This document shows positions 20,209 to 41,617 of a stretch of 64,000 nt of DNA, piece by piece. Location of the stretch: contig OZ241744.1 of assembly GCA_965200965.1 (NCBI GenBank), positions 32,001-96,000 of the forward strand, given 5' to 3'. The stretch is from an uncultured Candidatus Binatia bacterium. GTDB lineage: Bacteria > Desulfobacterota > Binatia > Bin18. The translations under genes and the position numbers were made by a program. The stretch's first letter is position 1. Each line of letters begins with the position of its first letter. The notes below the pieces were generated by a model that made no database searches, was not told where the DNA came from, and worked only from the letters and a program-made list of their open reading frames with translations.

Positions 20209-20330
20209 TATGGTCAGAGTAGCAGTTTTGGAGGGTCGGCGTCAATTGCCGGCAGCGCGGGGCCATGTCTTGCGGTGCTCGCTGTTTTCGGCTATGAGTG
20301 GCAGGTCTTTCTGCTCCCCTGTTTCCGGCC

Positions 20331-21527: not shown

Positions 21528-21586
21528 TGCTGGCGGAACAATGGTTTTTTCGTGTTCCAGGGCCAGGGTGATAAGGAAGCGTCATT

Positions 21587-22525: not shown

Positions 22526-23322
22526 ACAATCCGCTGGCCCTGGTCCGCACCGCGGTGCGGCACCGGGCCTTGCTGGGCCAGATGGTGGCGCGTGATGTCA
22601 CAGCGCGTTTTGTGGGGACGAGTCTCGGTGCGGTGTGGAGCCTCATTCAGCCGTTTATCCTGCTGTGTCTGTATACGTTTGTGTTCGGGGTGATCTACCG
22701 GGTGCGCTTTCAGGTTGAAGGGGTTGGCTTTGTGCCGTTTTTGTTTTGCGGCCTGTGGCCGTGGCTGGCGTTTCAGGACGCCTGTCTGCGGTCGGTGACG
22801 GTCATTGTCGATAACGCCCAGTTGATGAAGCGTGTCCAGTTTCCCTCTGAACTGTTAGTCTTGTCCGCGGTGGTGTCGAGCTTTCTCAGCCACGCGGTCG
22901 GCTTTGGTCTGATGCTGGCTGGGGTGGGGATTTGGCAGGGCGGGCTTTCCCCGCTGGCCGTCGGCCTGCTGGCGATTCCGTTTCTGCTCCAAGTGCTGCT
23001 GGCCGTCGCGCTCGGCCTGCTGCTGGCTCCGGCCAATGTCTTTGTGCGGGATGTGTCGCAGCTCACTGGTGCGCTGTTTACGGTGTGGTTTTTCCTGTCC
23101 CCGGTCTTGTATTCCGTGCAGATGGTACCCGAAGCTCTGCAAGCCCTCCTGGCCTGGAATCCGCTGACCCCCATCCTGTCCCTGTACCGGACGCTGATTC
23201 TCAGCCCTGCACAGATGGGCTGGATTTTTGTCTTATATCCCCTCATTCTGTCTCTGCTGTTGCTGGGCTTGGCCCAGCGGTTCTTTGCTGGCTGTAAAGG
23301 CTATTTTGCCGATTATCTCTAG
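22522..23322 (+). CDS. wzm: polysaccharide ABC exporter permease
   Basis: RDVTARFVGTSLGAVWSLIQP, VRDV, FLSPVLY, NPLT, FADYL; GTG start overlaps the upstream stop. Confidence 0.92.
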   Translation: MNNPLALVRTAVRHRALLGQMVARDVTARFVGTSLGAVWSLIQPFILLCLYTFVFGVIYRVRFQVEGVGFVPFLFCGLWPWLAFQDACLRSVTVIVDNAQLMKRVQFPSELLVLSAVVSSFLSHAVGFGLMLAGVGIWQGGLSPLAVGLLAIPFLLQVLLAVALGLLLAPANVFVRDVSQLTGALFTVWFFLSPVLYSVQMVPEALQALLAWNPLTPILSLYRTLILSPAQMGWIFVLYPLILSLLLLGLAQRFFAGCKGYFADYL

Positions 23323-23358
23323 GGGCCGTGTGGGGGTGGCTGAGGCTGGAAACACATA

Positions 23359-24999: not shown

Positions 25000-25964
25000 C
25001 AACACGTCCGAGCGTGTCCATTCTGCTGGTGACGAAAAACGGTGCCCGCTATCTGGCCGAAGTGCTGGACGCTATCGGCCGCCAACGCGGACACTTTCAC
25101 CTTGAGGAGATTATTGCGGTGGATTCCGGCTCGCGGGATGGTTCGCCGGAGATTTTGCGCCAGGCCGGGGCGCGCGTCCTGACGATTCCCGCGGCCGCGT
25201 TTGGTCACGGCAAAACCCGCAACCTGGCGGCCTCGCAGGCCCGGGGCGACTATCTGGTTTTCCTGACCCAAGACGCGACTCCGGCTCGTGCGGACTGGCT
25301 GGACACGCTGCTCGCCCCCCTGGAGGCCGACCCGCTCATTGTCGGGGCCTACAGTCACCACAGGCCGCGTCCCGGCTGCCACCCGATGGAGTGGCGGCGG
25401 ATCGTCCAGGAAGAGATGTCCGGCAGGCCAGACTCCTGCGTCAACAGCGCGGTCAATAATCCAGCCTATGCTCGCAATCCGGTTTTTTTTAATTTTTTTG
25501 CCAATACCAGCTCCGTCATTCGGCGCCGGACCTGGAACCGCATCCCTTTGCCCGAGGTCGAATTTGGCGAAGATCAACTGTGGGCCAAATCGGTCCTTGA
25601 AGCCGGCTATAAGACGGCCTACTGCGCCGACTCAGTGGTATATCATTCCCACGGCTATGGACCGTGGGCCAATTTCCGCCGCCACTTTGACCATTTCGCT
25701 GTCCTGTCCGGGGAGACGGGCAAGATGCCCAGCCGTCTGGCCGAATGTCTGATCGCGGCTGTCCAGGTGGCCCGCCTCGACCTGGCCTTCTGGGCGCAGG
25801 AACGGGGCAAGACCAGGGCGCGCGTGGTGTATCGCTGGGCACTGCCGGCGCTGAGCTGGCATGTCGCCGCCCAGTTGGGGATGTGGTTTGGAGAGCGGGC
25901 ACGGACATTGCCGGGCTGGCTCCAGAGGTGGTTTTCGTATCAGACCCACATCAAACGCCAGTAG
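24996..25964 (+). CDS. GT2 glycosyltransferase (rhamnosyltransferase-like)
   Basis: VDSGSRDGS, FGHGKTRN, FLTQDA, GEDQLWA, VYHSH. Confidence 0.88.
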   Translation: MTTRPSVSILLVTKNGARYLAEVLDAIGRQRGHFHLEEIIAVDSGSRDGSPEILRQAGARVLTIPAAAFGHGKTRNLAASQARGDYLVFLTQDATPARADWLDTLLAPLEADPLIVGAYSHHRPRPGCHPMEWRRIVQEEMSGRPDSCVNSAVNNPAYARNPVFFNFFANTSSVIRRRTWNRIPLPEVEFGEDQLWAKSVLEAGYKTAYCADSVVYHSHGYGPWANFRRHFDHFAVLSGETGKMPSRLAECLIAAVQVARLDLAFWAQERGKTRARVVYRWALPALSWHVAAQLGMWFGERARTLPGWLQRWFSYQTHIKRQ

Positions 25965-25993
25965 CGGAGAAAACGAGCCAGGAAGACAGGGCC

Positions 25994-28612
25994 ATGCGGA
26001 TTGTCCAGGTGGTACACGGGCTTCCTCCACAAGAGAAGGCAGGGACCGAGATCCTGACCCTGGAACTGTCCCGGGCCCTCCAGGCGCGCGGACACCAGGT
26101 CACGATTGTGGCGCGGACCTTTGCGCCCGAGCGCGAGGAATTCAGCCTCCAGGAAGAGCGGGATGGAAGCGGGATGCGGACCGTCCGCCTGGTCAATAAT
26201 TACACGCGAACGACATTCTATCGCCTGGAGTACGACAATCCCTTTTTCCATGACCTCTTTCGCCAACTCTTACACCGCTGCCAGGCCGATATTGTCCATT
26301 TTCAACATATTGCCCACCTGTCGGCCAGCCTTATTCCGTGCGTGTCTGCCCTTGGCTGCCCAACGGTGTTGAGCCTGCACGACTTCTTTTTTGCCTGTCA
26401 TCGGATACAGTTCATTGATCGTGACGACCGGCTCTGCCCCGGACCGCACGGTGGCGAGCGCTGTGTCCCCTGTCTCCACGACATCGCCCCAGCCGCAGCC
26501 ATTCGCCGTCGTTTTGCGTATATGACCCAGGTCTTACAGGTTCCCCGTCGGGTGATCGTTCCATCCGCCTTTCTGGCCAGGCGGATTGCGGACGATTTTC
26601 CCTCCTTGCACGACCGGCTCCAGGTCATTGCCCCCGGGCTGCCCCTCCCGCCCGGTTCCGCGCCACAGCGGCCCCCGCGGCCAGATGGGGCGAACAGGGG
26701 ACGAAACACCTCAGGCAGCCCCCGGCAGCCCCTGCGGATTGTCTCTGTCGGTATCCTGCAACCGCACAAAGGCGCGCATGTTCTGATTGAGGCCCTCAAA
26801 GGGCTGCCCGCCGACCGGGTGCATACCTCGTTCTATGGGCAGGAGCCGGCCTCCAGGCAGGACTATATTGACCAGCTCCGCCGGGCGGCAGCCGGCCTGT
26901 CTGTTCAGTGGGGGGGGGTGTACGACCGGGCGCAACTCCAGGCTATTCTGGCCCGGCACGATGTGCTGGTCATGCCCGTCATCTGGGAAGAGACGTTTTC
27001 TCTGGTGATCCGTGAGGCGTTCCAGGCCGGTCTGCCGGTAATTGCCGCCCGCCGCGGGGCCTTGCCCGAGGTTATCCACGATGGCCGCAATGGGCTGCTG
27101 TTCGAGCCGGAGAATGCGGAGGACCTGCGGCGATGCCTGCGGCGTCTTCTTGATGAGCCGGCACTGCTCGCGCAACTCAAGCCAGCCGGCTTTGTCTGGC
27201 GCGATGCTGATGCCTGCGCCCGGGATGTTGAGCAGGTGTATGCAGCCGTGCTGGCCGAGTCCGGCCCCCGCTCCGCCCTGCCTTTGCCGGGTGTCCCCAA
27301 TACGCCATCGGTGCCGAACGGGCCAGAGGCGTCGTCCCAAGCTCCGAACCCCTCCAGCCCAGCCGCCGTGCCTCGCCAGTTCAGAGATACGTCGCCCGGC
27401 GTGGCCCCACCCCGCCTGAGCGTCTGTCTGCCGACCTGCAACGGTGAGGCGTATGTGGCCGAAGCACTGCGCAGTGTGTTGCAGCAGAGCTATGCCGATT
27501 TTGAAGTGGTGGCGGTTGACGACGGCTCAAGCGACCGGACAGGAGAGATTCTCCAGGGGTGTGACGACCCCCGCGTCCGCATCTATCAGAACCCGCGCCA
27601 GCGAGGCATTTCGGGCAACTGGAATGCCGCGGTCGAGCTGGCCCGGGGCGAGTATGTGTGCGTCTTCCACCAGGATGATGTGATGCTGGCCGATAATCTG
27701 GCTCGGAAAATGGCCCTGTTTGAGACAGACCCCGGCCTCAGCCTGGTGCATTCGCGGGCAGACCCCATTGTCGAAGCCGGAGCGCCGAGTCGTTTGGCCA
27801 GCTGGATGGAACAAGCGGAGGCGGATTTTGTGGCGGAAGGCGAGGCGTATTTTCGCAAACTGCTGCTGAGGGGGAATTGCATCGCCGCATCAACCGTCAT
27901 GGTCCGGCGGGAGCAGTTAGCCGCGGCCGGTGGCTTCAATGAAACGCTCGGCTTTGCCTGCGACTATGAGATGTGGATGAAGCTGTGCCTTGAGGGCCGG
28001 GTCGGTTTTCTCCACGACGCCCTGGTGCGCTACCGCTGGCACGGCGGCAATGTCTCGCACGACTATCAATACGAGCGGGGAGTGGAAGAGTGCGGCCGAG
28101 CGATGCGTGCCGCCCTCGCCTCCTACACCCAAGGCCGCGGCAACACGCCCCAGGCCCGGCTCTTGGCTGAGGCCGCGGAAGCCGTCCTGAAACAACGGGA
28201 GTGGGCGGCTGAGCTTGACCGGGGGCGGGTGTGGCTGGAAGACCAGTGGCAACGCTGGCAGGAGCACGACAAAGAGCAGGCCGGGGTCGTGGCCGACTAT
28301 AAGACCTGGATCGACGAGTTGGAAGCCGGCAAGGCCTGGCTGGAAGACCAGTGGCAACGCTGGCAGGAGCACGACAAAGAGCAGGCCGGGGTCGTGGCCG
28401 ACTATAAGACCTGGATCGACGAGTTGGAAGCCGGCAAGGCCTGGCTCGAAGAGCAGTGGGGCAATTGGCAGCGGATTGCGCAAGAGCGAGCCTGGTTCGA
28501 AGAGCAGTGGCGGGACAATTTTTGGATACGCCTGGGCCGGTTTTTGAGAATCGTAAAGCCTGCACAGGGGTTTCTAGCAAAAAAGAGCGAGCCTGATGAT
28601 CGATCCGACTGA
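25994..28612 (+). CDS. multidomain glycosyltransferase GT4 + GT2 with a Trp-rich coiled-coil tail
   Basis: MRIVQVVHGLPP..GTE, HKGAHVL, ETFSLVIREA (GT4); VDDGSSD, FHQDD, DYEMW (GT2); C-terminal repeats. Confidence 0.9.
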   Translation: MRIVQVVHGLPPQEKAGTEILTLELSRALQARGHQVTIVARTFAPEREEFSLQEERDGSGMRTVRLVNNYTRTTFYRLEYDNPFFHDLFRQLLHRCQADIVHFQHIAHLSASLIPCVSALGCPTVLSLHDFFFACHRIQFIDRDDRLCPGPHGGERCVPCLHDIAPAAAIRRRFAYMTQVLQVPRRVIVPSAFLARRIADDFPSLHDRLQVIAPGLPLPPGSAPQRPPRPDGANRGRNTSGSPRQPLRIVSVGILQPHKGAHVLIEALKGLPADRVHTSFYGQEPASRQDYIDQLRRAAAGLSVQWGGVYDRAQLQAILARHDVLVMPVIWEETFSLVIREAFQAGLPVIAARRGALPEVIHDGRNGLLFEPENAEDLRRCLRRLLDEPALLAQLKPAGFVWRDADACARDVEQVYAAVLAESGPRSALPLPGVPNTPSVPNGPEASSQAPNPSSPAAVPRQFRDTSPGVAPPRLSVCLPTCNGEAYVAEALRSVLQQSYADFEVVAVDDGSSDRTGEILQGCDDPRVRIYQNPRQRGISGNWNAAVELARGEYVCVFHQDDVMLADNLARKMALFETDPGLSLVHSRADPIVEAGAPSRLASWMEQAEADFVAEGEAYFRKLLLRGNCIAASTVMVRREQLAAAGGFNETLGFACDYEMWMKLCLEGRVGFLHDALVRYRWHGGNVSHDYQYERGVEECGRAMRAALASYTQGRGNTPQARLLAEAAEAVLKQREWAAELDRGRVWLEDQWQRWQEHDKEQAGVVADYKTWIDELEAGKAWLEDQWQRWQEHDKEQAGVVADYKTWIDELEAGKAWLEEQWGNWQRIAQERAWFEEQWRDNFWIRLGRFLRIVKPAQGFLAKKSEPDDRSD
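28232..28441 (+). repeat. perfect 2 x 105 bp in-frame tandem repeat (35 aa), followed by a degenerate third unit
   Basis: WLEDQWQRWQEHDKEQAGVVADYKTWIDELEAGKA starts at 28232 and 28337 with identical DNA. Confidence 0.95.
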
Positions 28613-30908
28613 TCCAGAGTATGCGAATACGCCGGCCTCAGACCAGCGTCCCGCCTATGGCTATGGTCCGGCCGACCCGACTGCCCCTCCCGCGGCGACC
28701 ATTGTGACGCCGTTTTACAACACCGGGCCGATTTTTCATGAAACCGCTCGCTCTGTCATGCGCCAGTCCTTCCAGCAGTGGGAATGGCTCATCGTCAATG
28801 ATGGTTCAACCCAGGCTGACGCCGTGGCCCTGCTCAACGAATACCGTGCTCGAGAGGCGCGTATTCGCGTGATTGACCACGGTTACAATCGCGGCTTGAG
28901 CGCCGCCCGTAATACCGGTTTTCAGGCGGCCCGGACCCCCTATGTCATTCAACTCGATAGCGATGACCTGTTGGAGCCAACCGCCATTGAGAAGTGCCTG
29001 TGGTTCCTGGAGTCCTATCCCGAGTACGCCTTTGCGAAGGGGTATACCGTCGGCTTTGAGGCACAGACCTATCTGTGGCAGCACGGTTTTCATAGTGGCC
29101 AGGCCTTTTTGCAAGAAAACAGGGTGGCGGCTAGCAGTGTGGTGCGGACAGCGGTCCACCGCGCGGTTGGCGGCTATGACAGAACATTTCAGAGCGGGTT
29201 TGAGGATTGGGATTTCTGGCTGCGATGTGCCAGCCAGGGCCATTGGGGGGGGACGCTGCCAGAGTATCTGGATTGGTACCGCCGCCGCGAGTCCCATCAG
29301 GACCGCTGGGCTGACTGGAACCAGCCCCAGCAGGTCAAGCGCCAGCTCCGACAGCGCTATCCCCGGCTGTGGGCCGGGCAGTTTCCGCACATCCAGCCGG
29401 AGTGGCATCGGGCCTATACGCGCGTACCGGACCACTTCCCGTGGGACAATCGTCTGGAGAAGGACAAGCCGCGCCTCCTGATGATCCTGCCCTGGCTTAC
29501 GGTTGGCGGGGCCGATAAGTTTAATCTCGATGCCCTCGAACTGTTGACCGGCCAGGGCTGGGAAGTGTCCATCGCCGCCACCCTGACCGGAGATTCGTCC
29601 TGGCTGCCAGAGTTTGCCCGTTTTACCCCCGATATTTTTGTCCTGCCCCATTTTTTGCGTCTGACGGACTATCCGCGTTTCCTGTGCGCCCTGATCCACT
29701 CTCGCCAGGTTGATGTCGTGATGATCTCGAACAGCGAATTTGCCTATCTCCTCTTACCCTATCTCCGCTCTCGGTGCCCCGGGGTCGCCTTTGTCGATTA
29801 CTGTCATATGGAGGAAGAAGCGTGGAAGAGCGGGGGCTACCCGCGTTTAGCCGTTGCCTATCAGGACATGCTTGATCTCAATATCGTTTCATCGCGGCAT
29901 CTTCGCCACTGGATGGAAAAACGCGGAGCCGATGCGGAGCGTATTCAGGTGTGTTATACCAATGTTGACGCGGAAAAATGGCGGCCGACAGCCGCGGCCA
30001 GTGGGCCGTCTGTCCGGCGCGCACTGGATATTGCCGACGATACGCCTCTCCTGCTGTACGCGGCGCGCATTTGTGAGCAAAAGCAGCCCCGCGTCTTTGC
30101 CCAGAGCCTGCTCCGCCTCCGCCAGACCACGACAGACTGGGCCGCGGTCGTGGCCGGTGACGGCCCAGAGGCTGGCTGGTTGGGCGGCTTTATCAAACGC
30201 CACCGGCTGGGCAGGCATGTCCGCTTGCTGGGTGCCGTCCCAAACGACTCCGTTCGTCAGATCATGGTCGAGGCCGACATTTTTTTCCTGCCTTCACAGT
30301 GGGAGGGGATCGCGCTGTCTGTCTATGAAGCGATGGCGTGTGGGCTGCCCATTGTTGGGGCCGATGTGGGCGGGCAGCGGGAACTCGTCACGCCGGAGTG
30401 TGGCGTCTTGATTGCCCGCGCGACCCCGGAGGCCGAAGCCGAGACCTACGCCGCCGCCCTCGCTGAGCTGATCGCCCAGCCCGCCCGTCGCCACCGCATG
30501 GGCCAGGCTGGCCGCCAGCGGGTACAGAGCGCGTTTCGCCTGGAAGACTTGGCTACGCGGCTGGCGCAGCTCTTTCGAGAAGCCCAACACCGGCATACGA
30601 CACAGCCACGTCCCATGCCCCATCCCAGTCTGGCCCGGATCTGCGCCGGCCAAGCGGTCGAGTATACCCGCTTGACGAGTGTGGCCGAGGAGTTGTGGCA
30701 GGAGCGTGGCCAGGCGAGGTCGGCCACCCCCGGCCTTTCGCCCCTTGGGAGCGTTGGGCTGCCGGGTGTGCCGTGGCGGACCCGGCTCTACTTTGCCCTC
30801 CGGCGTCTCTTGTTCCCGTCGTATCGGCTGGCCATGAACCACAGGTGGGGCGTGAGGCTCAAAGACACGCTGAAACGCTTTGTGCTGGGACCCGGCCACA
30901 CGGGCTAG
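28596..30908 (+). CDS. bifunctional glycosyltransferase GT2 + GT4
   Basis: IVNDGST, GLSAARN, LDSDD, EDWDFW; then GGADKFN, EQKQP, EGIALSVYEAMACGLP. Confidence 0.9.
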   Translation: MIDPTDPEYANTPASDQRPAYGYGPADPTAPPAATIVTPFYNTGPIFHETARSVMRQSFQQWEWLIVNDGSTQADAVALLNEYRAREARIRVIDHGYNRGLSAARNTGFQAARTPYVIQLDSDDLLEPTAIEKCLWFLESYPEYAFAKGYTVGFEAQTYLWQHGFHSGQAFLQENRVAASSVVRTAVHRAVGGYDRTFQSGFEDWDFWLRCASQGHWGGTLPEYLDWYRRRESHQDRWADWNQPQQVKRQLRQRYPRLWAGQFPHIQPEWHRAYTRVPDHFPWDNRLEKDKPRLLMILPWLTVGGADKFNLDALELLTGQGWEVSIAATLTGDSSWLPEFARFTPDIFVLPHFLRLTDYPRFLCALIHSRQVDVVMISNSEFAYLLLPYLRSRCPGVAFVDYCHMEEEAWKSGGYPRLAVAYQDMLDLNIVSSRHLRHWMEKRGADAERIQVCYTNVDAEKWRPTAAASGPSVRRALDIADDTPLLLYAARICEQKQPRVFAQSLLRLRQTTTDWAAVVAGDGPEAGWLGGFIKRHRLGRHVRLLGAVPNDSVRQIMVEADIFFLPSQWEGIALSVYEAMACGLPIVGADVGGQRELVTPECGVLIARATPEAEAETYAAALAELIAQPARRHRMGQAGRQRVQSAFRLEDLATRLAQLFREAQHRHTTQPRPMPHPSLARICAGQAVEYTRLTSVAEELWQERGQARSATPGLSPLGSVGLPGVPWRTRLYFALRRLLFPSYRLAMNHRWGVRLKDTLKRFVLGPGHTG

Positions 30909-30954: not shown

Positions 30955-33466
30955 TCACTCAATGTAGCCCAGTTCCGAAGCGATGCCCCCAGAGATGGCA
31001 AAGACCCGCACTTCACCACCGCCGACAAAAGGCTCGGCTGGTAAGGATATACGAAAGCCTGAGGTGGCCAACGCTGGCTGGCCGAGCCACTCGGCAATAT
31101 CCGGGCGAGAGATGTTCGTTGGGCCGGCATGGTGAAATGCGCCGTTCAGAAAAATAAGAATGCGCTCGGCCACCCGCCCGTGCTTTTCGTCAACCGCCCA
31201 GCCCTTGAGCAAGACGGAGTGCTCAGAAAACCGAGGGGGCTCAAGGTAGCCTCGGAGTGCGTGGGGACGAATGGGAAAGGTTGTCCCGTCTGAGGCCACC
31301 ACTGCGGTCTGGGCCAAGCGGTAGTGGACTCTGGCGGGGCAGGCCAAGGCTGTCCGGCCGGCAGCCTCGGTGATAACACACACCTCAACCGTATTGCGGC
31401 CCGCCCGAAAAGCGGCTTCCGGGACAAGGGCCGACCAGCTCCCGGGCCGGCCGTACACTGGAACGCTCCACGGCTGCGTCGTCGCCTGGATCGTGCCATT
31501 GACCGCCACAGCAAGGGAGAAGGGCGAGTCGCCATTGAGCGGCGGAGAGACCCCGCCGGTGATATGAGCGGGCACGAAGTCGGATTGGGGGTCCACCGTG
31601 GCAAAGCGATCAGGCCGGTCAATCTCAATCTGGACCTTGGTGTGGACGCTGCCGAACTCTTCAAGCCGGTGGCCGAGGAGTTGTGGGGTGGGGCCGGGGG
31701 CAGGTGGAAAGGGCGTCTCAGAGCCAAACAGACGGTGCTGACGCTGGACTGCGCGCTCTCGGGCCTTGGCTAAGCCGTCGAAGGTCACGGTTCTGCCATG
31801 ATCTGCAAAAATCCGGCGTCTCCGCTCGGGGCACGGCCCCAAGGCCGAGCAGCCATCGGCTTCCCAGGGCAGTTCCACCCCGAGCATGGCGGCAAGGGTC
31901 GGCAGAATATCAATCGTTTCCAGCGGCCTGTCGTTGATGCGGCCTGTCCGTTGGAAGGGGGCTTTGATGAAGAGGGGGACGGGCATAATGTCTTGGAAGG
32001 TGGTCTGGACAGGGCGGCGGTTCCAGTCACCCGGTCGAAAACTGATTCCGTGGTCGGAGGTGATGACGAGCAGGGTTTGCTCATACAGGCCAGTTTGCTT
32101 GAGATGGGCCGTCAGTTCTCCCAGCCAGGTATCAACAAAGCCAACCTGGAGCAGATGACGATAGTAGACCCGGAGGACTCCCCAGGGGTCGTCAAGGTAG
32201 CGTTGGCCTATCAGGCCGGGGGTGCTGCCTTCCTGGCTATAGACCTTTCCGGACGGGAGGTAGTGATATGGGCCGTGGGGCAGGAGGAGATGAAGATAAT
32301 ACAGCCGCGGCTGGTCTGTCGCCCGAATGGCTTGGATGAAGTCCCACGCCTGCGAGCGGCGCTTGGAAAGAAGGGTTTGGCGCACCATCCTGTCAAAAAA
32401 TTGTGACTGGGCAGCGTGGCGGTTGGACGGCTCTTGGGCATTGACAAAGCCCATCCAATTCTGGGAAATCGCTGGAAGCGTGGCGCGGAGGTCCCGGGGC
32501 AGGAGCAGGTGGAGATAGACAACCGTCAGGTCAGACAGCAGGGCGGGGAGACGCTGCCATGCAGAGCCTCCGGCCTGCGGGCATATGTGGGCTGGACAGA
32601 GTTGGGTCAGGGTGCCAAACGCGTTGAGCTCATAGGGCCGGGCCAACAGCGTGAACATATTGTCGGGGTGGTCGGCGGCGTGGGGCAGGCGGCGTGCGGT
32701 GTCAGGGTACTTGCCGGTCAGGATGGCTGGAACCGATCGGACGGTTACGGAACTGACGGTGGTGGTATTCCGAAACCAGGTTGCGTGCTGGGCCAGGGCC
32801 GCAAAATTGGGATAGCGGACCGTGTCAATCTGCTGGTGTTCGTTGAGCAGGGAGACCAGAGGGAGTTCGTCCAGGATAATAAAAACAATGGGGGGTGGAG
32901 TGGGAAGAGGTACACGCTCAGCCGGCACGGGGGGGGGGGGCAGCCGGAACGACGCTCCGAAAGGCAGGCGAGGCAAACACAAACAGGCCCGGAAAAATCA
33001 GCACTGCCGGAGACAGCAGGCTGAAGAACTGCCGAACGGGCAGAAAAAAGACATAAGCCAGCGCGGCCACCCCTCCGCACAACAGCGCTCCGGCAGCGAG
33101 GAGCGTACCCGGCAGGGCGATGGGGTGCAGGGCAGGGAGCACTGTGGCCGCCACCCCCCCGGCAATAAGCGCGCTATGGACCCAGCGTCTCAGCCGGTGG
33201 CTGAGGAGACCGGTGATTCTCTCCACGCCTGTCAAACCGAGCGGGAGGAGCACGCAGAGTATGACGACCAGAGCGGCACTGTCTTGCCAGGTAGCGTGCC
33301 GGAAGACAAAAAACTCGGCTTGGCGCGCCAGCAACTCAAAGAGGGGCTGTGCAATGGCAAAGCCCACTATGACAAAAACGTGCAGGCTGGCCGCATAGGC
33401 CGTCTCTCTCTTCTGCACGGTTGCGGGTGGGTGGGATGGGTGGTGTTCAGGTTTTTGGCTGGCCAT
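30955..33466 (-). pseudogene. membrane-anchored alkaline-phosphatase-superfamily (sulfatase-like, LtaS/NoeB-like) transferase, copy 1; frameshifted at a G12 tract and possibly phase variable
   Basis: ORFs 32918-33628 and 30955-32982 together match the intact paralog; the frame breaks at G12 (32929-32940) and removing one G gives 836 aa; ILDEL, SVTVRSVP, HLLLPH and TSDHG motifs. Confidence 0.85.
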
Positions 33467-34922
33467 AGTAGAGGATGCGCGTACCTGAGGCCAAGGCTTG
33501 ACGCTCGCGGATAGCAAAAGCGGCGGATAAGCAGCGCTCAAAATACGCCGTCTCATAGTCCGCATGGTGGTCGTCTTTGCGGCGGAGCAAGGTCTGGACC
33601 ATAGGGTCCTCGCGGGTGATGAACTCAATGACCACCGCGGCCCCAGAGCCTGCCAGCCAGGCGATGCAGTCGGAGAGAGGAATATTGGCCCCGATCACCA
33701 GATGGTGAATGAGGGCCAGACCCAGGATGAGGTCGGGTCGGGCCCGACGGTCGAGGGCCTTGCGTTCTGTCCCCCGCCAGCCGAGGTTTGGTGCCGGATC
33801 GGCCAGATTGCTGACCAGGGGCAGAATCGTGGTTTCCCCGTCCGCCTTCAATTCCTGGTAGAGCCGTTCTATGACCAGGCTATCGACATCCAGGGCAACG
33901 ACTGTGGTAGCGTTTTGGGCTGCAATGCGTGAGAACGTGCCGGTGTTGCAGCCCAGATCCCAGACCATTGGCCAGGGCCGCGAGTGGATCACGCGGCGGA
34001 CAAAATCGGCTTTTCGGGTCTGCTCGCTCTCCGTGTACGGAAGTTGGTGGGTATACGCCGCCCATGTTGAGCGTGAGCGCTTCCAACTCAGACGCCGGAT
34101 CAGTTTTATCAAACGACCGACATTGGCTTGAATCACGGCCGTATGAAAGCCGGCCCGGCGCAGCTCGTGTTTGAGGTTCTGTTGACGACCGGGTTTGCCC
34201 GGACGCGCCGGCTGAGCAGAGTCGGCATACCGGGCTTGGGCTTTGGCCTGCAAATACACATGGCTGAACACGCCGGGCCGCAGCAGGTCACGCACCGACA
34301 TGAGCCCGTGACAGTCTTGGGCGGTAATGCCTTCAAGACTCCCGCGCAGCCAGGCGTGAAAGGGGAGGTCTTTATACGCCTGGAGGAGGAGCGGAAACAG
34401 AAATAATTGACAGAACTGCCGATAGCCCACCCAGGGTTCTCCAGGGCACAACCGGGTAAAAGAGGGGAGGTCGATAAAAAGCGGGCGGCTGCCGACCCAC
34501 TGGACATTGTAAGGCGAGGCGTCTTTGAGAATCATACCCTCGGCTAAGGCGTCACGCAGCAACTCCAACTGGAGCAAAGCGGCGTCCTTGAGCATACCAA
34601 ACGCCCATTCGTAGGGATAGGAAACAACCGGGAGCTTGGGGTGTTTGAGGGCAGCGACCCAGGGGCTTGCGGGAGACGGGCGTTCTGATGCGGCAAACTC
34701 AGGGCTGAGGTCCCGGAAATGGAGCGGATCAAGCTGCTCGGTCTGGACAATTTTCCCGGCGTTGTGCCAGCGCTGAAAAAAGGTGGTTCGGGTCAGCTGA
34801 TTCCAGTCGGCCAGGGCCGGCGCGGTCAGTGTTCGCACTACCGTGTCTGCCTGATAAAAAACGCGGCTCGTGCGGTCGCGGAACGAGCCGGGCTCAGACC
34901 TGATCTCATCAGAAAAAGACAT
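33447..34922 (-). CDS. NoeA-like protein: kinase-like N-terminal domain fused to a class I SAM methyltransferase
   Basis: GSFRD, VSYPYEW, LKDASPYNVQW..FID (kinase-like catalytic loop); VWDLGCNTGTFS, LALIHHL (methyltransferase). Confidence 0.8.
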   Translation of the reverse strand: MSFSDEIRSEPGSFRDRTSRVFYQADTVVRTLTAPALADWNQLTRTTFFQRWHNAGKIVQTEQLDPLHFRDLSPEFAASERPSPASPWVAALKHPKLPVVSYPYEWAFGMLKDAALLQLELLRDALAEGMILKDASPYNVQWVGSRPLFIDLPSFTRLCPGEPWVGYRQFCQLFLFPLLLQAYKDLPFHAWLRGSLEGITAQDCHGLMSVRDLLRPGVFSHVYLQAKAQARYADSAQPARPGKPGRQQNLKHELRRAGFHTAVIQANVGRLIKLIRRLSWKRSRSTWAAYTHQLPYTESEQTRKADFVRRVIHSRPWPMVWDLGCNTGTFSRIAAQNATTVVALDVDSLVIERLYQELKADGETTILPLVSNLADPAPNLGWRGTERKALDRRARPDLILGLALIHHLVIGANIPLSDCIAWLAGSGAAVVIEFITREDPMVQTLLRRKDDHHADYETAYFERCLSAAFAIRERQALASGTRILYYGQPKT

Positions 34923-34956
34923 GGGCCACGCCTGAGCCGAAGCGTAGACCGGGAGG

Positions 34957-35196
34957 CTATTCCCGCTCGCTCGCCTGAGCGTCTTCGCTCTTCGGGTCTT
35001 TCGTTTGGTCAACACCGAACACGCGCAGGAAACGCTGCCAGTACAGCTTGAGCAAAACGGCCAGACCAGCCATCCCGCCGAGCACGAGTTGCAGGAACAT
35101 GCTGCCGCTGCCCGGATCGAGATAGGCGTGGGCAGCGCGTGGAAAGCCACAGGTCATCCCTGTCAACACTGCAAGGAACAGCCCTCTTCTCTGCAT
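34957..35196 (-). CDS. small membrane protein with AYLDPGSGS motif (79 aa)
   Basis: GGAGGGG RBS; signal-like N-terminus ending AHA|Y, then LDPGSGS, one TM helix and a charged tail. Confidence 0.8.
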   Translation of the reverse strand: MQRRGLFLAVLTGMTCGFPRAAHAYLDPGSGSMFLQLVLGGMAGLAVLLKLYWQRFLRVFGVDQTKDPKSEDAQASERE

Positions 35197-35386
35197 AGTC
35201 CCCTCCTGATCGCAACTCGCCTGGTGCTGCATCCGTAGTTGTGCTGTGGGAGCGAATTGGCCTCAGCACCGACGGCTCTCTCTCCTATCACGGGCTGCCA
35301 AGATTGAAAAGAGGGAGATTGAGGGGCCGGGGCAGAGAGGAGAACCGCTGCGGGACTGTCCCGCTGCCGCCGGGTCTGGCATGGTA
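35154..35386 (+). repeat. about 230 bp direct repeat, copy 1 (leader region plus 5' end of the micropeptide gene)
   Basis: Closely matches 37584-37815 from TCATCCCTGTCAACAC to GGCATGGTA. Confidence 0.92.
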
Positions 35387-37531
35387 GCCTCGGAGTGCGT
35401 GGGGACGAATGGGAAAGGTTGTCCCGTCTGAGGCCACCACTGCGGTCTGGGCCAAGCGGTAGTGGACTCTGGCGGGGCAGGCCAAGGCTGTCTGGCCGGC
35501 AGCCTCGGTGATAACACACACCTCAACCGTATTGCGGCCCGCCCGAAAAGCGGCTTCCGGGACAAGGGCCGACCAGCTCCCGGGCCGGCCGTACACTGGA
35601 ACGCTCCACGGCTGCGTCGTCGCCTGGATCGTGCCATTGACCGCCACAGCAAGGGAGAAGGGCGAGTCGCCATTGAGCGGCGGAGAGACCCCGCCGGTGA
35701 TATGAGCGGGCACGAAGTCGGATTGGAGGTCCACCGTGGCAAAGCGATCAGGCCGGTCAATCTGAATCTGGACCTTGGTGTGGACGCTGCTGAACTCTTC
35801 AAGCCGGTGGCCGAGGAGTTGCGGGGCGGGGCCGGGGGCAGGTGGAAAGGGCGTCTCAGAGCCAAACAGACGGTGCTGGCGTTGGACTGCGCGCTCTCGG
35901 GCCTTGGCTAAGCCGTCGAAGGCCACGGTTCTGCCATGATCTGCAAAAATCCGGCGTCTCCGCTCGGGGCACGGCCCCAAGGCCGAGCAGCCCTCGGCTT
36001 CCCAGGGCAGTTCCACCCCGAGCATGGCGGCAAGGGTCGGCAGAATATCAATCGTTTCCAGCGGCCTGTCGTTGATGCGGCCTGTCCGTTGGAAGGGAGC
36101 TTTGATGAAGAGGGGGACGGGCATAATGTCTTGGAAGGTGGTCTGGACAGGGCGGCGGTGCCAGTCACCCGGTCGAAAACTGACCCCGTGGTCGGCGGTG
36201 ATGACGAGCAGGGTTTGCTCATACAGGCCAGTTTGCTTGAGATGGGCCGTCAGTTCTCCCAGCCAGGTATCAACAAAGCCAACCTGGAGCAGATGACGAT
36301 AGTAGACCCGGAGGACCCCCCAGGGGTCGTCAACACGGATCGTGGGCGTCATGTCGGGGCTGACCGCTTCTTGGGAATAGACCTTTCCGGACGGGAGGTA
36401 GTGATATGGGTCGTGGGGCAGGAGGAGATGAAGATAATACAGCCGCGGCTGGTCTGCCGCCTGAATGGCTTGGATGAAGTCCCGCGCCTGCGAGCGGCGG
36501 TCGGGCAGCAGATCTCCAGGTATCCCCGTCCGGGAAATCTTTGGAAGCGGGGCGCTGAGGTCCCGGGGCAGGAGTCTGTAGCAATACGCAAGGGCAAGGT
36601 CAGACAGCAGGGCGGGGAGACGCTGCCATGCAGAGCCCCCGGCCGGCGGGCATATGTGGGCTGGACAGAGATGGGTCAGGGTGCCGAACGCGGCGATCTC
36701 ATAGGGCCGGGCCAACAGCGTGAACACATTGTCGGGGTAGTCAGTGGCGTGGGGCCGGCGGTGGTCGTAGGCAGGGTACTTGCCGGTCAGGATGGCTGGA
36801 ACCGATCGGACGGTTACGGAACTGACGGTGGTGGTATTCCGAAACCAGGTTGCGTGCTGGGCCAGGGCTGCAAAATTGGGATAGCGGACCGTGTCAATCT
36901 GCTGGTGTTCGTTGAGCAGGGAGACCAGGGGGAGTTCGTCCAGGATAATAAAAACAATGGGGGGTGGAGTGGGAAGAGGTACACGCTCAGCCGGCACGGG
37001 AGGGGCAGCCGGAACGACGCTCCGAAAGGCGGGCGAGGCAAACACAAACAGGCCCGGAAAAATCAGCACTGCCGGAGACAGCAGGCTGAAGAACTGCCGA
37101 ACGGGCAGAAAAAAGACATAAGCCAGCGCGGCCACCCCTCCGCACAACAGCGCTCCGGCAGCGAGGAGCGTACCCGGCAGGGCGATGGGGTGCAGGGCAG
37201 GGAGCACTGTGGCCGCCACCCCCCCGGCAATAAGCGCGCTATGGACCCAGCGTCTCAGCCGGTGGCTGAGGAGACCGGTGATTCTCTCCACGCCTATCAA
37301 ACCGAGCGGGAGGAGCACGCAGAGTATGACGACCAGAGCGGCACTGTCTTGCCAGGTAGCATGCCGGAAGATAAGGAACTCGTCATGGCGCGCCATCATG
37401 TCAAAGAGGGGCTGTGCAATGGCAAAGCCCACTATGACAAAAACGTGCAGGCTGGCCGCATAGGCCGTCTCTCTCTCCTGCACGGTTGCGGGTGGGTGGG
37501 ATGGGTGGTGTTCAGGTTTTTGGCTGGCCAT
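35288..37531 (-). CDS. sulfatase-like (LtaS/NoeB-like) membrane transferase, copy 2; in frame but lacking the C-terminal domain of copy 1
   Basis: Near-identical to copy 1 up to HALRGY, then reads into the repeat; alternative GTG start at 37573. Confidence 0.85.
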   Translation of the reverse strand: MASQKPEHHPSHPPATVQERETAYAASLHVFVIVGFAIAQPLFDMMARHDEFLIFRHATWQDSAALVVILCVLLPLGLIGVERITGLLSHRLRRWVHSALIAGGVAATVLPALHPIALPGTLLAAGALLCGGVAALAYVFFLPVRQFFSLLSPAVLIFPGLFVFASPAFRSVVPAAPPVPAERVPLPTPPPIVFIILDELPLVSLLNEHQQIDTVRYPNFAALAQHATWFRNTTTVSSVTVRSVPAILTGKYPAYDHRRPHATDYPDNVFTLLARPYEIAAFGTLTHLCPAHICPPAGGSAWQRLPALLSDLALAYCYRLLPRDLSAPLPKISRTGIPGDLLPDRRSQARDFIQAIQAADQPRLYYLHLLLPHDPYHYLPSGKVYSQEAVSPDMTPTIRVDDPWGVLRVYYRHLLQVGFVDTWLGELTAHLKQTGLYEQTLLVITADHGVSFRPGDWHRRPVQTTFQDIMPVPLFIKAPFQRTGRINDRPLETIDILPTLAAMLGVELPWEAEGCSALGPCPERRRRIFADHGRTVAFDGLAKARERAVQRQHRLFGSETPFPPAPGPAPQLLGHRLEEFSSVHTKVQIQIDRPDRFATVDLQSDFVPAHITGGVSPPLNGDSPFSLAVAVNGTIQATTQPWSVPVYGRPGSWSALVPEAAFRAGRNTVEVCVITEAAGQTALACPARVHYRLAQTAVVASDGTTFPIRPHALRGYHARPGGSGTVPQRFSSLPRPLNLPLFNLGSP

Positions 37532-37583
37532 AGTAGAGGATGCGCGTACCTGAGGCCAAGGCTTGACGCTCACGGATAGTAAA

Positions 37584-37815
37584 TCATCCCTGTCAACACT
37601 GCAAGGAACAGCCCTCTTCTCTGCATGGTCCTCTCCTGATCGCGGCTCGCCTGGTGCTGCATCCGCAGTTGCGCTGTGGGAGCGAATGGGCCTCAGCGCC
37701 GGCGGCTCTCTCTCCCATCAGGGCTGCCAAGATTGAAAAGAGGGAGGTTGAGGGGCCGGGACAGAGAGGAGAGCCGCTGCGGGGCTATCCCGCTGCCGCC
37801 GGGTCTGGCATGGTA
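37584..37815 (+). repeat. about 230 bp direct repeat, copy 2; carries the 5' part of an 18-aa remnant of the micropeptide (37570-37626, - strand)
   Basis: Matches 35154-35386; remnant reads MQRRGLFLAVLTGMIYYP*. Confidence 0.9.
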
Positions 37816-37851
37816 TGGGACAGAACATCTTTCGTTCCTATCCGGCACCTG

Positions 37852-39276
37852 ATGACAGATGATACTGCTACACCGTGTCTCTTATTGATCGTGCCCTGGC
37901 TGGAAATGGGTGGGGCGGACAAGTTCAATCTGGACCTGCTCCGGCAGCTGCGCCAACGGGGATGGCAGGTGTTGATCGCAGCGACCTTGCCCTCCACCCA
38001 CCCCTGGTTGGCCCGGTTTGCCCGCTATGGCCAGGATATTTTTCTGTTCGATCAACAGCAACGGATGGCCGACTATCCCGCTTTTCTACGCGAGTTGATC
38101 CAGACGCGGGGAGTTGATGTCGTGCTGATTGCCAATAGCGAACTCGGCTATCTGCTCCTGCCATACCTGCGGGCCGAGTGTTCGGACGTGACGTTTGTCG
38201 ATTTTTGCCACATGGAAGAGCACGCCTGGAAACGCGGTGGCTACCCCCGGATGTCGGTTGAACACCAGGACTTGCTTGACTTGCAGCTCGTCTCTTCTGA
38301 CCATCTGCGTGGCTGGATGGTTGACCGTGGAGCCGACCCTGAGCGTATCCGGGTGTGTTACACCAATATTGATCCGGCTGAATGGCGGCCCGACCCTGAG
38401 CGGCGCAAACGGGTTCGTCATGCTCTGCTGGCCGTTCCTGAACACGGTCAGGAAGACGCCCGGGATCCGGGCCCCCCGATCATCTTGTACGCCGGACGCA
38501 TGTGCGCCCAGAAACAGCCGCGCGTGTTTCTGGAGACGGTCCGACACCTGAAGGTCGGTGCTGACCGCTTTGTGGCAGTGGTAGCCGGTGATGGGCCCGA
38601 GTTTGCCCGGCTGCGAAGCGAGCTCAGCCGCTCTGGTCTGGCCGACCGGGTGCGTTTGCTGGGAGCGGTTTCAAACGCGCGGATTCGAGACCTGATGAGC
38701 GCAGCCGATATCTTTTTCCTGCCCTCCCGATGGGAGGGCATTGCCGTGTCGATCTTTGAGGCGATGGCCTGTGGGCTGCCGGTTGTGGGGGCGGATGTGG
38801 GCGGCCAGCGGGAACTCCTGACCCCGGAGTGCGGGCTGCTGGTATCGCCAGGCCCTGCCGGAACGGGAAGCGCAGCTCGTCAATACGCGCCTCTCCTGGC
38901 CGACCTGCTGAGCGACCCCCAACGCCGGGCGGCCCTCGGCCGGGCGGCGCGGCAGCGCGTCTGCCAGCATTTTCGGCTTGAGCAGATGGGCGAGCGCATG
39001 GCCGGTGTGCTCCAGGAGGCGCGGGACCTGCATATCAGCCAGCCCCGTCCCCTCCCCGATGCGCACTTCGGCCAGCTCCGAGCGGCGCGGACCGTGCGCT
39101 ATTTGCGCTTCCAGGCCCTGGTACGACGCCTGGTGTCTCCGACCATACGGGCGGCCCTGGACAAAAAGCTCCACTGGCTCCTGCCGGTCAGGGAAACCGC
39201 CGAGCGGGTCTTGCTGCGAGAGGTCTGGAGAGATGGGCCTGTCATGCGCCAGCTACCCCCACACAAGACACCATGA
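37852..39276 (+). CDS. GT4 glycosyltransferase, paralog of the C-terminal half of 28596-30908
   Basis: LIVPWLEMGGADKFNLD, AQKQPRVF, EGIAVSIFEAMACGLP; start uncertain. Confidence 0.88.
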   Translation: MTDDTATPCLLLIVPWLEMGGADKFNLDLLRQLRQRGWQVLIAATLPSTHPWLARFARYGQDIFLFDQQQRMADYPAFLRELIQTRGVDVVLIANSELGYLLLPYLRAECSDVTFVDFCHMEEHAWKRGGYPRMSVEHQDLLDLQLVSSDHLRGWMVDRGADPERIRVCYTNIDPAEWRPDPERRKRVRHALLAVPEHGQEDARDPGPPIILYAGRMCAQKQPRVFLETVRHLKVGADRFVAVVAGDGPEFARLRSELSRSGLADRVRLLGAVSNARIRDLMSAADIFFLPSRWEGIAVSIFEAMACGLPVVGADVGGQRELLTPECGLLVSPGPAGTGSAARQYAPLLADLLSDPQRRAALGRAARQRVCQHFRLEQMGERMAGVLQEARDLHISQPRPLPDAHFGQLRAARTVRYLRFQALVRRLVSPTIRAALDKKLHWLLPVRETAERVLLREVWRDGPVMRQLPPHKTP

Positions 39277-40166
39277 GTTGCCCGGATGCCAAAACCCCTT
39301 CCGAGCCCGCGGCTGTCCACGCGCAGCCGACAGAGGTCCACGTTTCGGTTGTCATCCTGACCTGGAACTCCGAGCGGCAGATTGTGGCCTGCCTGGCCTC
39401 CCTGGCCCAAGGGCTGTGCATATGTCCCGCTGAGGTCATTGTGGTTGACAACGGCTCACAGGATCAGACCTGTGCCGTTGTCCAAAACGCCCTGCCCAGC
39501 GTGCGGCTGGTGCGCAACGCCAAAAACCGTGGCGTTGCCTCGGCTCGGAATCAGGGCGTCCGCTTAGCGCGTGGCCAGTATATCATCGTTCTGGACGACG
39601 ACACGATTGTCCAGCCAGGGGCTTTGGACTCCCTCGTCTGCTATATGGCCGCACGGCCTGAAGTCGGGCTGTGCGGCCCTAAACTGACCGCAGCCGACGG
39701 CAGTCTCCAGTTCTCCTGTCGGCTGTTCCCGACCTTGGCCGATAAACTGGCCCGGCGTCTGCCTTCAGCCGCGGCGCAAAAAATCGTCTCCGCCTCTGAA
39801 ATGGCCGACTGGGATCACAACACGGCCCGTGAGGTGGACTATGTGATCGGTGCCTGCCAGGTTATCCGCCGCCGCGCCCTGCACACAGTAGGGATGCTTG
39901 ACGAATATATTTTCTATGGTCCAGAAGATGTCGATCTGTGTCTGCGGCTGCAACAGGCCGGCTGGCGGGTAGTGTATGTGCCTGATGCGGTCGTTGTGCA
40001 TCAGGAGCGACGGCGGACCAACTCCGTGTGGTCCGGTCTGACCTGGAAGCATATGAGGAGCGTCGGCTATTTTTTCTGGAAGCACGGCTACCTGCTGTCC
40101 CGCAAAAAGCTCTACGCGCGGATTGCCCAGTCTCGGGCGCGCAGTCAGGTCCGGAGGCAGGGGTGA
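39273..40166 (+). CDS. GT2 glycosyltransferase (WbbL-like)
   Basis: VVDNGSQD, NRGVASARN, LDDD, EDVDLCLR. Confidence 0.88.
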   Translation: MSCPDAKTPSEPAAVHAQPTEVHVSVVILTWNSERQIVACLASLAQGLCICPAEVIVVDNGSQDQTCAVVQNALPSVRLVRNAKNRGVASARNQGVRLARGQYIIVLDDDTIVQPGALDSLVCYMAARPEVGLCGPKLTAADGSLQFSCRLFPTLADKLARRLPSAAAQKIVSASEMADWDHNTAREVDYVIGACQVIRRRALHTVGMLDEYIFYGPEDVDLCLRLQQAGWRVVYVPDAVVVHQERRRTNSVWSGLTWKHMRSVGYFFWKHGYLLSRKKLYARIAQSRARSQVRRQG

Positions 40167-41614
40167 GGAGCCACACGCTCTACTCCTCAACGCTGCTGCT
40201 CGGGCTCCTGACCGCCGACCTGGTGTGTGTCGGCGGAGCATACGCGATGGCGTTTGCCTTCCGTTTTGTTCTGCCGCTGCCCTTCACCACCGAGTTGCTG
40301 CCGGCTGAGCGCCTCATTGAGGTGCGCCATCCCATCGTCTTCCTTCTCGTCACCCAGGGATGGGTCTTGTACTTTCTGGGTCTTTACGATCTGCATGGCT
40401 TGCATCTGCGCGCCCGGGTCCTGCCCCGGGCGCTGGCCGCCGGCGGGCTGCAATTGCTGCTGACCACGGCCTGGTATTTTTTTCGGGGCGATGTTTTTTT
40501 CCCCCGTTCCGTGCTGGTGCTCTTCTGGCTCTTTAACGCGGTGATGATCGGCGTCCTGCGCCTGGGCGTCCTGCACCGGCTGGGACGGGTCCGCCCGTTG
40601 CGGATTCTGCTGGTCGGGACGCCCACGGAGGCGCGAGCTTTTCTCAATGTTCTGCCCGCGGTGCGGCCCCGGCCCGAGATTGTGGGCCTGGTCAGCCTCT
40701 CCGGGCTGAACGGCCAGGCCGCGCACGAGGACGACCGGCCGGCGCTTGCCGACCTGGAGGTCCCCTGGCTGGGGGACGCGACAGCGTTGGAACGGATTGT
40801 CCAGGGTGTGGGCGCTGATGATATCATCCTGCTGGCCTCCACAACCTGGAAAGATACCTTTGTTGAACGCCTGCTCGGCCTGCCGATGCGGCCTGCTGCG
40901 TCCCTGGATGAGGCTGACAGACGCCCCCGGGTGCTGGTTGTGCCTTCGGTGTACGATATCCTGGTGGGGCGGGTCGCCTCGGTCCGGCTGCACGACATGC
41001 CCCTGGTTGAAGCGCTCAAAGACCCGTACGACGACCTGGCCTTCGTCGTCAAGGGCATCCTTGACCGGGTGCTTGCGGCCGGGCTGCTGGTGCTGAGTCT
41101 GCCCGTCCTGGGTCTGGCCTCGGCCGGCCTGGCCGCCACCTCCCCGGGACCGATTGTGTACCGCCAGCGGCGCGTCGGCAAAGACGGCAGGGAGTTCACC
41201 CTGTACAAGTTACGCACCATGATTGACCGGGCTGAAGAAGAGACCGGGCCGGTCCTGGCCGGCCGGACCGATCCGCGCGTGACCCGGATAGGCCGTCTCT
41301 TGCGTAAGAGCCGTATTGATGAGCTCCCGCAGCTCTGGAACATCCTGAACGGTACGATGAGCCTGGTCGGCCCCCGGCCCGAGCGGCCCGAGTTTGTCAA
41401 AGACTTCCTGTGCAGTGTGCCGGGCTACGCTGAGCGATTCCAGGTCAAACCCGGCTTGACCGGGCTGGCCCAGATCAACGGCGAGTACCACACTACCCCG
41501 GAATACAAGCTCAAATACGACCTGGCCTATATGTACAACTACTCGGTGTGGCTCGATGTCCGTATTCTGGCCGATACGATCAAGGTCGTGCTGACCCGCC
41601 AGGGCAGCGCCTGA
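40163..41614 (+). CDS. polyprenyl-phosphate priming sugar transferase (WcaJ/WbaP family)
   Basis: N-terminal TMs; KLRTM, DPRVT, DELPQLWN, MSLVGPRPERP, KPGLTGLAQ. Confidence 0.92.
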   Translation: MRSHTLYSSTLLLGLLTADLVCVGGAYAMAFAFRFVLPLPFTTELLPAERLIEVRHPIVFLLVTQGWVLYFLGLYDLHGLHLRARVLPRALAAGGLQLLLTTAWYFFRGDVFFPRSVLVLFWLFNAVMIGVLRLGVLHRLGRVRPLRILLVGTPTEARAFLNVLPAVRPRPEIVGLVSLSGLNGQAAHEDDRPALADLEVPWLGDATALERIVQGVGADDIILLASTTWKDTFVERLLGLPMRPAASLDEADRRPRVLVVPSVYDILVGRVASVRLHDMPLVEALKDPYDDLAFVVKGILDRVLAAGLLVLSLPVLGLASAGLAATSPGPIVYRQRRVGKDGREFTLYKLRTMIDRAEEETGPVLAGRTDPRVTRIGRLLRKSRIDELPQLWNILNGTMSLVGPRPERPEFVKDFLCSVPGYAERFQVKPGLTGLAQINGEYHTTPEYKLKYDLAYMYNYSVWLDVRILADTIKVVLTRQGSA

Positions 41615-41617
41615 AGC

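Follow-up and report, generated by a model that had tools for sequence, protein, structure and literature searches.

How a phospho group activated in the cytoplasm might reach an acceptor on the outer side of a bacterial membrane, and whether a very small protein could carry it, are the questions raised by a three-gene cassette of an uncultured Candidatus Binatia bacterium. The cassette lies at positions 30955-35196 of the window, the 64,000-nucleotide stretch analysed here (contig OZ241744.1 of assembly GCA_965200965.1, positions 32,001 to 96,000), to which all window coordinates refer. It encodes a 79-residue membrane microprotein, a protein of the NoeA family combining a kinase-like domain with an S-adenosylmethionine (SAM) methyltransferase domain, and a membrane enzyme of the alkaline phosphatase (ALP) fold with a predicted threonine nucleophile. 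We tentatively propose, with a probability of roughly 0.4, a three-step relay in which a loader enzyme would charge a Tyr of the microprotein, from which the cargo, here methyl phosphate, would pass to the Thr of the membrane enzyme and on to an envelope acceptor. The microprotein is read as the carrier because it is shared by two versions of the cassette that differ in their donor enzyme, because it occurs fused to either enzyme and because it keeps a single invariant hydroxyl.

The smallest ORF (open reading frame) agrees with the earlier note on this DNA, which had described a 79-residue protein with AHA followed by YLDPGSGS ahead of one transmembrane helix. Signal-like residues 1-24 end in AHA, Tyr25 opens the YLDPGSGS motif, and a single membrane helix containing Gln and Gly is followed by a basic amphipathic stretch and an acidic tail, signal peptide and topology being deduced from hydropathy and charge. 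The protein matches nothing in Pfam or NCBIfam and retrieves only unnamed look-alikes from the ESM Atlas. It nevertheless represents a real family, since its profile matches 10,215 clusters (50% identity) at E≤0.001. A protein database search for longer fused forms returned only short proteins among the best 120 of 344 matches. The first residue of the motif is Tyr in all 283 non-redundant peptides compared (pattern-selected and word-search sets excluded, two truncated rows removed), although the profile-based collection of these peptides still favours Tyr at position 1, which takes some weight from the proposed relay. It is the sole invariant residue: Tyr28 is replaced by Phe in 58 of the 283, Asp3, position 6, Ser8 and Gln12 all vary, and one peptide lacks any Ser or Thr in the motif. 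Because a signal-like leader is present in 277 of 362 peptides and a basic tail in nearly all, the Tyr is predicted to face outward.

The earlier note expected such peptides to co-occur with NoeA/NoeB-like genes, and the linkage is strong in both directions. Among the best 80 of at least 599 GTDB loci with a NoeA alignment, 76 contain the microprotein and 67 have an ALP-fold protein no more than 6 kb away, the flank being short in 10 of the other 13. Starting from the microprotein, 70 of the best 80 of 490 metagenome loci have NoeA on the contig; the remaining loci comprise four that end less than 60 bases away, three with the ALP protein and three on short contigs. Microprotein and NoeA occur in the identical 12 of 41 related genomes. 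Within the phylum of a Bacteroidota genome, NoeA was found in 10 of 251 genomes, nine with a microprotein match and the tenth with a divergent microprotein directly upstream (local E 0.075), and one genome has the microprotein without NoeA; a peptide match in G200 of this set was discarded as spurious, as it contains an internal stop codon. Within the phylum of a Pseudomonadota genome the microprotein is present in 9 of 400 genomes, with NoeA beside six, and within that of an Actinomycetota genome it is present in 55 of 300, with NoeA adjacent in 43 of the 44 examined. This pattern of coupling holds in four phyla, where related genomes do not count as independent. Additional microprotein copies go with additional ALP genes. 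Clustering of conserved neighbours yielded only lineage synteny and shadow frames.

A few individual loci deserve mention beside these counts. In genome G038 (L179:6778-13802 and L181) a single NoeA is accompanied by three microproteins and by at least eight ALP-fold membrane proteins, of which four lie in tandem next to an orphan microprotein. The whole cassette also lies on an IMG/VR viral contig (L243:5770-9702), after tail-like ORFs and before a glycosyltransferase; it may serve surface conversion by a phage that carries it, or mark the border of a prophage. One NoeA locus has no detected microprotein (L030:1334-7242); the genes upstream, resembling those for a thiamine diphosphate (TPP) enzyme, an iron-dependent alcohol dehydrogenase (Fe-ADH) and asparagine synthase, are similar to phosphonate genes.

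In some genomes NoeA is missing and another donor enzyme can take over its position. Five microprotein-bearing genomes gave no NoeA match, and all five of their ALP partners keep the Thr. In G103, the place of NoeA between microprotein and ALP enzyme is taken by a cytidylyltransferase-phosphoenolpyruvate mutase, a TPP decarboxylase, an Fe-ADH and a TagF-like transferase, at the very M42-peptidase site where G183 and G087 carry microprotein, NoeA and ALP enzyme; searches of plasmids and of 400 further genomes from its phylum retrieved no close relative of the TagF-like protein. A TagF-like protein of G816 begins with the peptide, leader included, which is also its only membrane anchor; its operon contains phosphonate genes and encodes a YidC-ALP fusion. 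In G871, by contrast with this fusion to the donor enzyme, it is the ALP enzyme that begins with the peptide; its gene lies downstream of one for a YidC-TagF fusion, with LicD nearby. Among 191 genomes of that taxonomic class, 15, which are close kin, carry the YidC-TagF gene; in all 15 the next ORF starts with the peptide, and the ALP part is visible in the fetched DNA at 14. These fusions and exchanged donor enzymes back the role in group transfer that had been suggested for the microprotein. At L327:1-3534 (G1222), YidC, TagF-like, peptide and ALP parts share one open frame of 1,430 codons.

A sulfotransferase was considered as a third loader and rejected. At L286:5098-8561, in a genome without NoeA, the microprotein is flanked by a PF13469 sulfotransferase on one side and a Thr-type ALP enzyme on the other, with a carbamoyltransferase and an O-antigen ligase nearby, which hints at a version for sulfate. 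The arrangement was seen only in G575, and G724 has no sulfotransferase homologue; it is not counted as evidence because it did not repeat in three homologues from the same order, which have neither microprotein nor ALP enzyme nearby.

A kinase acting with a phosphate methyltransferase gives R-O-P(O2)-OMe, as WbdD does on mannose, and a TagF-type enzyme gives R-O-P-X from CDP-X (CDP, cytidine diphosphate). Either way a phosphodiester would be formed on a hydroxyl, which is the donor chemistry of EptA/LtaS-type enzymes, and Thr-type ALP enzymes accept P-X from a phosphodiester and pass it on. In the relay that we favour, the NoeA-like enzyme would add a phosphate to the invariant Tyr of the microprotein and then O-methylate that phosphate, both the kinase activity and the tyrosyl methyl-phosphodiester being predictions. 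The membrane enzyme would take the methyl phosphate onto its Thr and hand it on to an acceptor of the cell envelope that lies outside the membrane. Crossing of the membrane might be achieved by loading before export, or by a flip of the short N-terminal tail with the help of YidC, and the private YidC copies of the TagF versions might serve such flipping. The carrier role itself is suggested, with comparable caution, by likeness to DltX, whose Tyr shuttles an acyl group.

Several observations weigh against the relay; they concern the membrane crossing, the kinase assignment, the catalytic domain and the genomic setting, and are given here with the alternatives on which they bear. The Tyr is predicted from sequence to face outward whereas the ATP, SAM and CDP donors are cytoplasmic, and loading before export would be single-turnover and a poor fit to fusions of 730 residues. 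No MBOAT-like tunnel protein accompanies the cassette, no YidC paralogue was found in the NoeA loci or in the G103 locus, and G724 and G575 have peptide and ALP enzyme with no loader identified. It is conceivable, if rather unlikely, that a lipid carries the methyl phosphate to the acceptor and that the microprotein is a subunit or anchor coupling loader and transferase, with the Tyr aiding donor binding; YidC paralogues would then insert proteins or flip lipid. EptA, MCR-1 and LtaS indeed use lipid donors and the structural model shares their five-helix architecture, the peptide of G816 does act as an anchor, and the Tyr is predicted to point away from the loader. Such a role would nevertheless explain neither why the outward-facing Tyr is invariant and never replaced by Phe nor why the peptide is fused to ALP enzymes that already possess several membrane helices, and a dedicated kinase would presumably be redundant because cells already contain phosphorylated lipids.

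The second concern is the kinase itself. The NoeA-like protein aligns with Sinorhizobium meliloti NoeA over 97% of its length (31.5% identity, E 2e-52), belongs to a family of at least 7,830 relatives and shows no signal peptide. In a fold search with its predicted model (mean predicted local distance difference test, pLDDT, 82.6), residues ~283-491 matched class I SAM methyltransferases, among them WbdD (Z 11.1, tied with many others). All 187 sequences compared have D134, N139, D151 and the SAM motif, and 186 have R30. The accessible part of PMC9758233 equates the first three with D166, N171 and D184 of protein kinase A and the basic R30 with its K72, and describes the kinase-like active site as atypical, in that Arg replaces the catalytic Lys and the ion-pair Glu is absent; the remote-homology scores that it gives for a kinase fold are weak (HHpred E 6.6, FFAS -8.95). 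Foldseek and VIA-align on the whole model returned methyltransferases alone, which masked the kinase-like domain. For the N-terminal domain, a profile search of PDB, a search of the ESM Atlas and a Pfam search with 65 members found no kinase match, hhalign against 29 Kdo-family kinases did no better than 20 column shuffles, and hhalign against one Ser/Thr kinase gave no match for this domain. As our own searches failed or were masked, the kinase label rests on the motifs and on PMC9758233. Of the kinase-like domain fused to a SAM methyltransferase in the earlier note, the KDASPYN..FID motif, the D-N-D residues and the methyltransferase domain thus stand, but the kinase fold was not recovered.

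An improbable alternative is that the kinase-like domain catalyses some other nucleotide-dependent reaction, or that the two domains have separate targets, the cassette being a sensing or regulatory unit in which the microprotein regulates the membrane enzyme. The unconfirmed kinase fold and the unusual active site agree with this, as does the best full-length structural match of the membrane enzyme, the regulator YejM/PbgA. It fits poorly, on the other hand, with the complete conservation of the D-N-D residues and SAM motif, with a Thr and metal ligands kept across very divergent partners, and with replacement by CDP-phosphonate/TagF pathways, which indicates group transfer.

The membrane enzyme was modelled from the in-frame copy B, one of two copies in the window (pLDDT 89.1), and consists of five helices followed by the ALP fold. 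The model aligned over its full length, membrane and catalytic domain, only with PbgA/YejM, EptA and MCR-1 (Z 26.3, 21.6 and 20.9; root-mean-square deviation 13-15 Å over 391-400 residues). Copy A has the metal-site motifs ILDE, PH and SDHG. In an 81-row alignment, which counts three plasmid seeds twice, the nucleophile column holds Thr in 75 rows and Cys in only two, and the metal ligands Asp183, His358, Asp432 and His433 are kept in 79, 78, 75 and 65 rows. The Thr nucleophile proposed earlier and an EptA/YejM-like architecture are supported by this column and by the model alignments. The fold and SVTVRSVP motif of the proposed multi-helix enzyme are confirmed, but in this assembly its gene is split in two frames. 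Annotation as a sulfatase was rejected, as the C/S-x-P-x-R motif is absent and the window has T-V-R-S-V-P; none of the curated EptA/LtaS family cut-offs was reached (23 bits against 970 for the LtaS model). The ALP partners fall in several barely alignable subfamilies and the microprotein and NoeA remain alignable, which would fit one donor serving many acceptors. The C-terminal beta-rich region of copy A (window 30955-31800) has no Pfam match and may be an acceptor-binding module.

In this genome the acceptor is perhaps the neighbouring glycan. A surface glycan had been proposed as the acceptor, and the cassette does lie inside a glycan locus here, but beyond Ca. Binatia the cassette is mostly found away from glycosyltransferase clusters. 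Matches to the glycan genes of the window occur in only 7 of 49 loci with full flanks, against 11 of 271 tiles of its own genome, and when 114 of the 324 selected neighbours were scanned with Pfam, most proved to be unrelated genes. Both results rule out that the cassette is always in a glycan locus, and because of them we consider it self-contained and its link to glycans here circumstantial. They bear equally on a WbdD-like capping reaction, for which we see a very small chance, in which NoeA would cap a polyprenol-linked glycan in the cytoplasm, the microprotein would tether NoeA and the outer enzyme would remove or relocate the cap. WbdD has both domain types of NoeA and is among the methyltransferase matches cited above, Wzm/Wzt and glycosyltransferase genes flank the cassette, and hydrolases give the top scores for the soluble domain, where sulfatases and phosphonate monoester hydrolases (Z up to 28.7) outscore EptA/LtaS. 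Most relatives, however, are found outside Wzm/Wzt or glycosyltransferase clusters, the domain order is reversed with no coiled coil, and an exchange of NoeA for a TagF-like enzyme with the other two parts kept would be unexpected.

The window also contains a second, damaged cassette, and the structure of both qualifies the three-gene minus-strand operon reported earlier: its genes and glycan flanks are real, but the third gene is not a single ORF here (Table 1). In copy A, a run of 12 G places the membrane part and the catalytic part in different frames. Contigs across this site from six public runs show a form four bases shorter and in frame in all six cases; these contigs may be collapsed copy B, so that assembly error, strain-specific slip and phase variation are indistinguishable and all three remain. 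Homopolymers of at least nine bases comprise 84 C/G runs and 4 A/T runs genome-wide. Elsewhere in the genome (G000:C1 273600-305100, 1133700-1164600 and 2852400-2870000), arrays of C9/G9-or-longer runs with a spacing of ~1.5-2.5 kb suggest tandem gene arrays with one homopolymer tract each, possibly phase-variable loci or assembly artefacts.

The tandem duplicate lies upstream (35154-37815) and is 93-96% identical. One deletion, running from the initial microprotein codons as far as the end of the NoeA-like gene, removed nearly all of both genes, and copy B, although in frame, lacks the last ~95 residues of copy A, that is, its last domain. We regard the duplicate as real because read depth is twofold across the parts common to both copies and because four runs have contigs that contain the deletion joint. 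In G015 (L180:6259-9444), a second copy of the cassette has likewise lost NoeA except for its tail.

Table 1. Position of the cassette, its partial duplicate and the flanking glycan genes in the window.
Feature	Coordinates	Strand	Basis or remark
Microprotein gene, 79 residues	34957..35196	-	ORF with AGGAGG resembling a ribosome-binding site; Tyr25 codon 35122-35124
NoeA-family gene, 491 residues	33447..34922	-	ORF and domain matches; kinase assignment from motifs and the accessible part of PMC9758233
Thr-type ALP-fold enzyme copy A, membrane part, five predicted helices	32941..33418	-	GTG start inferred
12-G run frameshifting copy A in this assembly	32929..32940	.	Copy B counterpart is an interrupted 8-base tract
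Copy A, catalytic and C-terminal part	30955..32928	-	Predicted nucleophile Thr 32743-32745 in SVTVRSVP
Copy B of the ALP-fold enzyme, 731 residues, in frame	35288..37483	-	Predicted nucleophile Thr 36812-36814
Head remnant of the duplicated cassette	37484..37815	-	Microprotein upstream region and first codons (37584-37815), deletion-joined to the last NoeA-like codons
Flanking glycan genes: Wzt, methyltransferase, Wzm, double methyltransferase, GT2, GT4-GT2, GT2-GT4	20298..30908	+	Family matches
Flanking glycan genes: GT4, GT2, polyprenyl glycosylphosphotransferase, O-antigen ligase-like protein	37654..42895	+	Family matches

Further along the window, the long ORFs at 18215-19516, 51143-51712 and 62639-63643 have no Pfam match, and 53782-56667 encodes a 962-residue Eco57I-like methylase close to a low-GC stretch. 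The named datasets that carry this DNA are sponge metagenomes, and no RNA dataset is among those listed as carrying it. As the closest named relatives are genomes of Ca. Binatia, the DNA probably comes from a Ca. Binatia bacterium that lives in association with sponges.

The cassette is not without precedent, and the earlier description of the system as undescribed has to be withdrawn, as the neighbourhood and fold assignments are already in the accessible part of PMC9758233. There, Lani_1194 of Legionella anisa represents the kinase-methyltransferase family, homologues of the small hypothetical protein Lani_1193 are reported in 65% and those of Lani_1195/NoeB, assigned an EptA/YejM-like alkaline phosphatase fold, in 38% of 816 neighbourhoods. 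Lani_1193-1195 are proposed to decorate secreted factors or the envelope, no chemistry being given in that part of the text, where the small protein is discussed only as a possible effector. By its description, Lani_1193 is like the microprotein in size, place and borderline signal peptide. The resemblance to rhizobial NoeA/NoeB noted earlier extends to the small ORF: on sequence, the cassette is the nodL-ORF-noeA-noeB unit of Sinorhizobium, in which a 71-residue hypothetical ORF between nodL and noeA on S. meliloti pSymA is the microprotein (E 4e-12), and the microprotein occurs on 59 rhizobial plasmid records. S. meliloti NoeB has, like the window enzyme, a membrane and ALP-fold layout with Thr at the nucleophile column; the two are not alignable by BLASTP (E 0.86), so the window enzyme belongs to a different subfamily. 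NoeA and NoeB are host-specific nodulation proteins according to the accessible part of PMC10945364, and we found no mechanism for the cassette chemistry in the open literature, subscription papers and bioRxiv supplements being out of view. The gene set is therefore known in outline. New are the near-perfect co-occurrence of microprotein and NoeA, the exchange of the donor enzyme, the fusion of the microprotein to either enzyme, the invariance of its Tyr and the recognition of a fourth gene in the operon.

A relay of this kind would be a new transmembrane transport of activated phospho groups, on a protein rather than on a lipid. It would give S. meliloti noeA/noeB a testable function and hint at how phosphonates reach surface glycans. 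The microprotein is an overlooked fourth gene of the nodL-noeA-noeB operon, and the cassette is very common (more than 10,000 microprotein clusters), yet the microprotein has no family model. A wider and more doubtful reading is that YxDPG microproteins are a general Tyr carrier of phospho groups over bacterial membranes, with exchangeable loaders, YidC-aided crossing of the N-terminal tail and unloading onto envelope polymers by Thr-type ALP enzymes. On this reading methyl phosphate might be loaded by NoeA, CDP-activated phosphonates or polyol phosphates by TagF-like enzymes, and sulfate perhaps by a sulfotransferase. Such a carrier would do for phospho groups what the DltX shuttle does for acyl groups, would offer a route for phosphonate decoration of glycans, and would supply the missing biochemistry of the noeA/noeB host-range genes.

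Each part of the proposed relay has a known counterpart from which it departs. WbdD of E. coli O9a and the NoeA-like protein are both single chains with a kinase-type domain and a class I methyltransferase domain, and the product would in both cases be a methyl-phosphodiester; in the NoeA-like protein the kinase-like domain comes before the methyltransferase, the reverse of WbdD, with no coiled coil and no match at sequence level. According to the accessible part of PMC3482155, WbdD phosphorylates and then methylates the phosphate, and modifies the glycan itself, with neither microprotein nor outer transferase. EptA/MCR-1, LtaS and YejM/PbgA share with the window enzyme the five helices, the outer ALP fold, the Thr in place of the sulfatase Cys and the D-E/H/D-H metal site; unlike these, the window enzyme and its relatives are always tied to a dedicated loader and a microprotein, and the donor is predicted to be other than bulk phospholipid. 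The closest parallel to the microprotein is DltX, which shuttles an acyl group on an invariant Tyr and, as far as the accessible part of PMC12148441 describes it, likewise has a single membrane helix, an invariant outward Tyr and both free forms and forms fused to a partner. The microprotein differs from DltX/DltB/DltD and PatA/PatB in having no likeness to the FXYXXF motif, in its N-terminal Tyr and in its cargo, which would be a phospho group, and whereas those shuttles have MBOAT and SGNH partners, its own partners are a kinase-methyltransferase or TagF-like enzyme and an ALP-fold enzyme.

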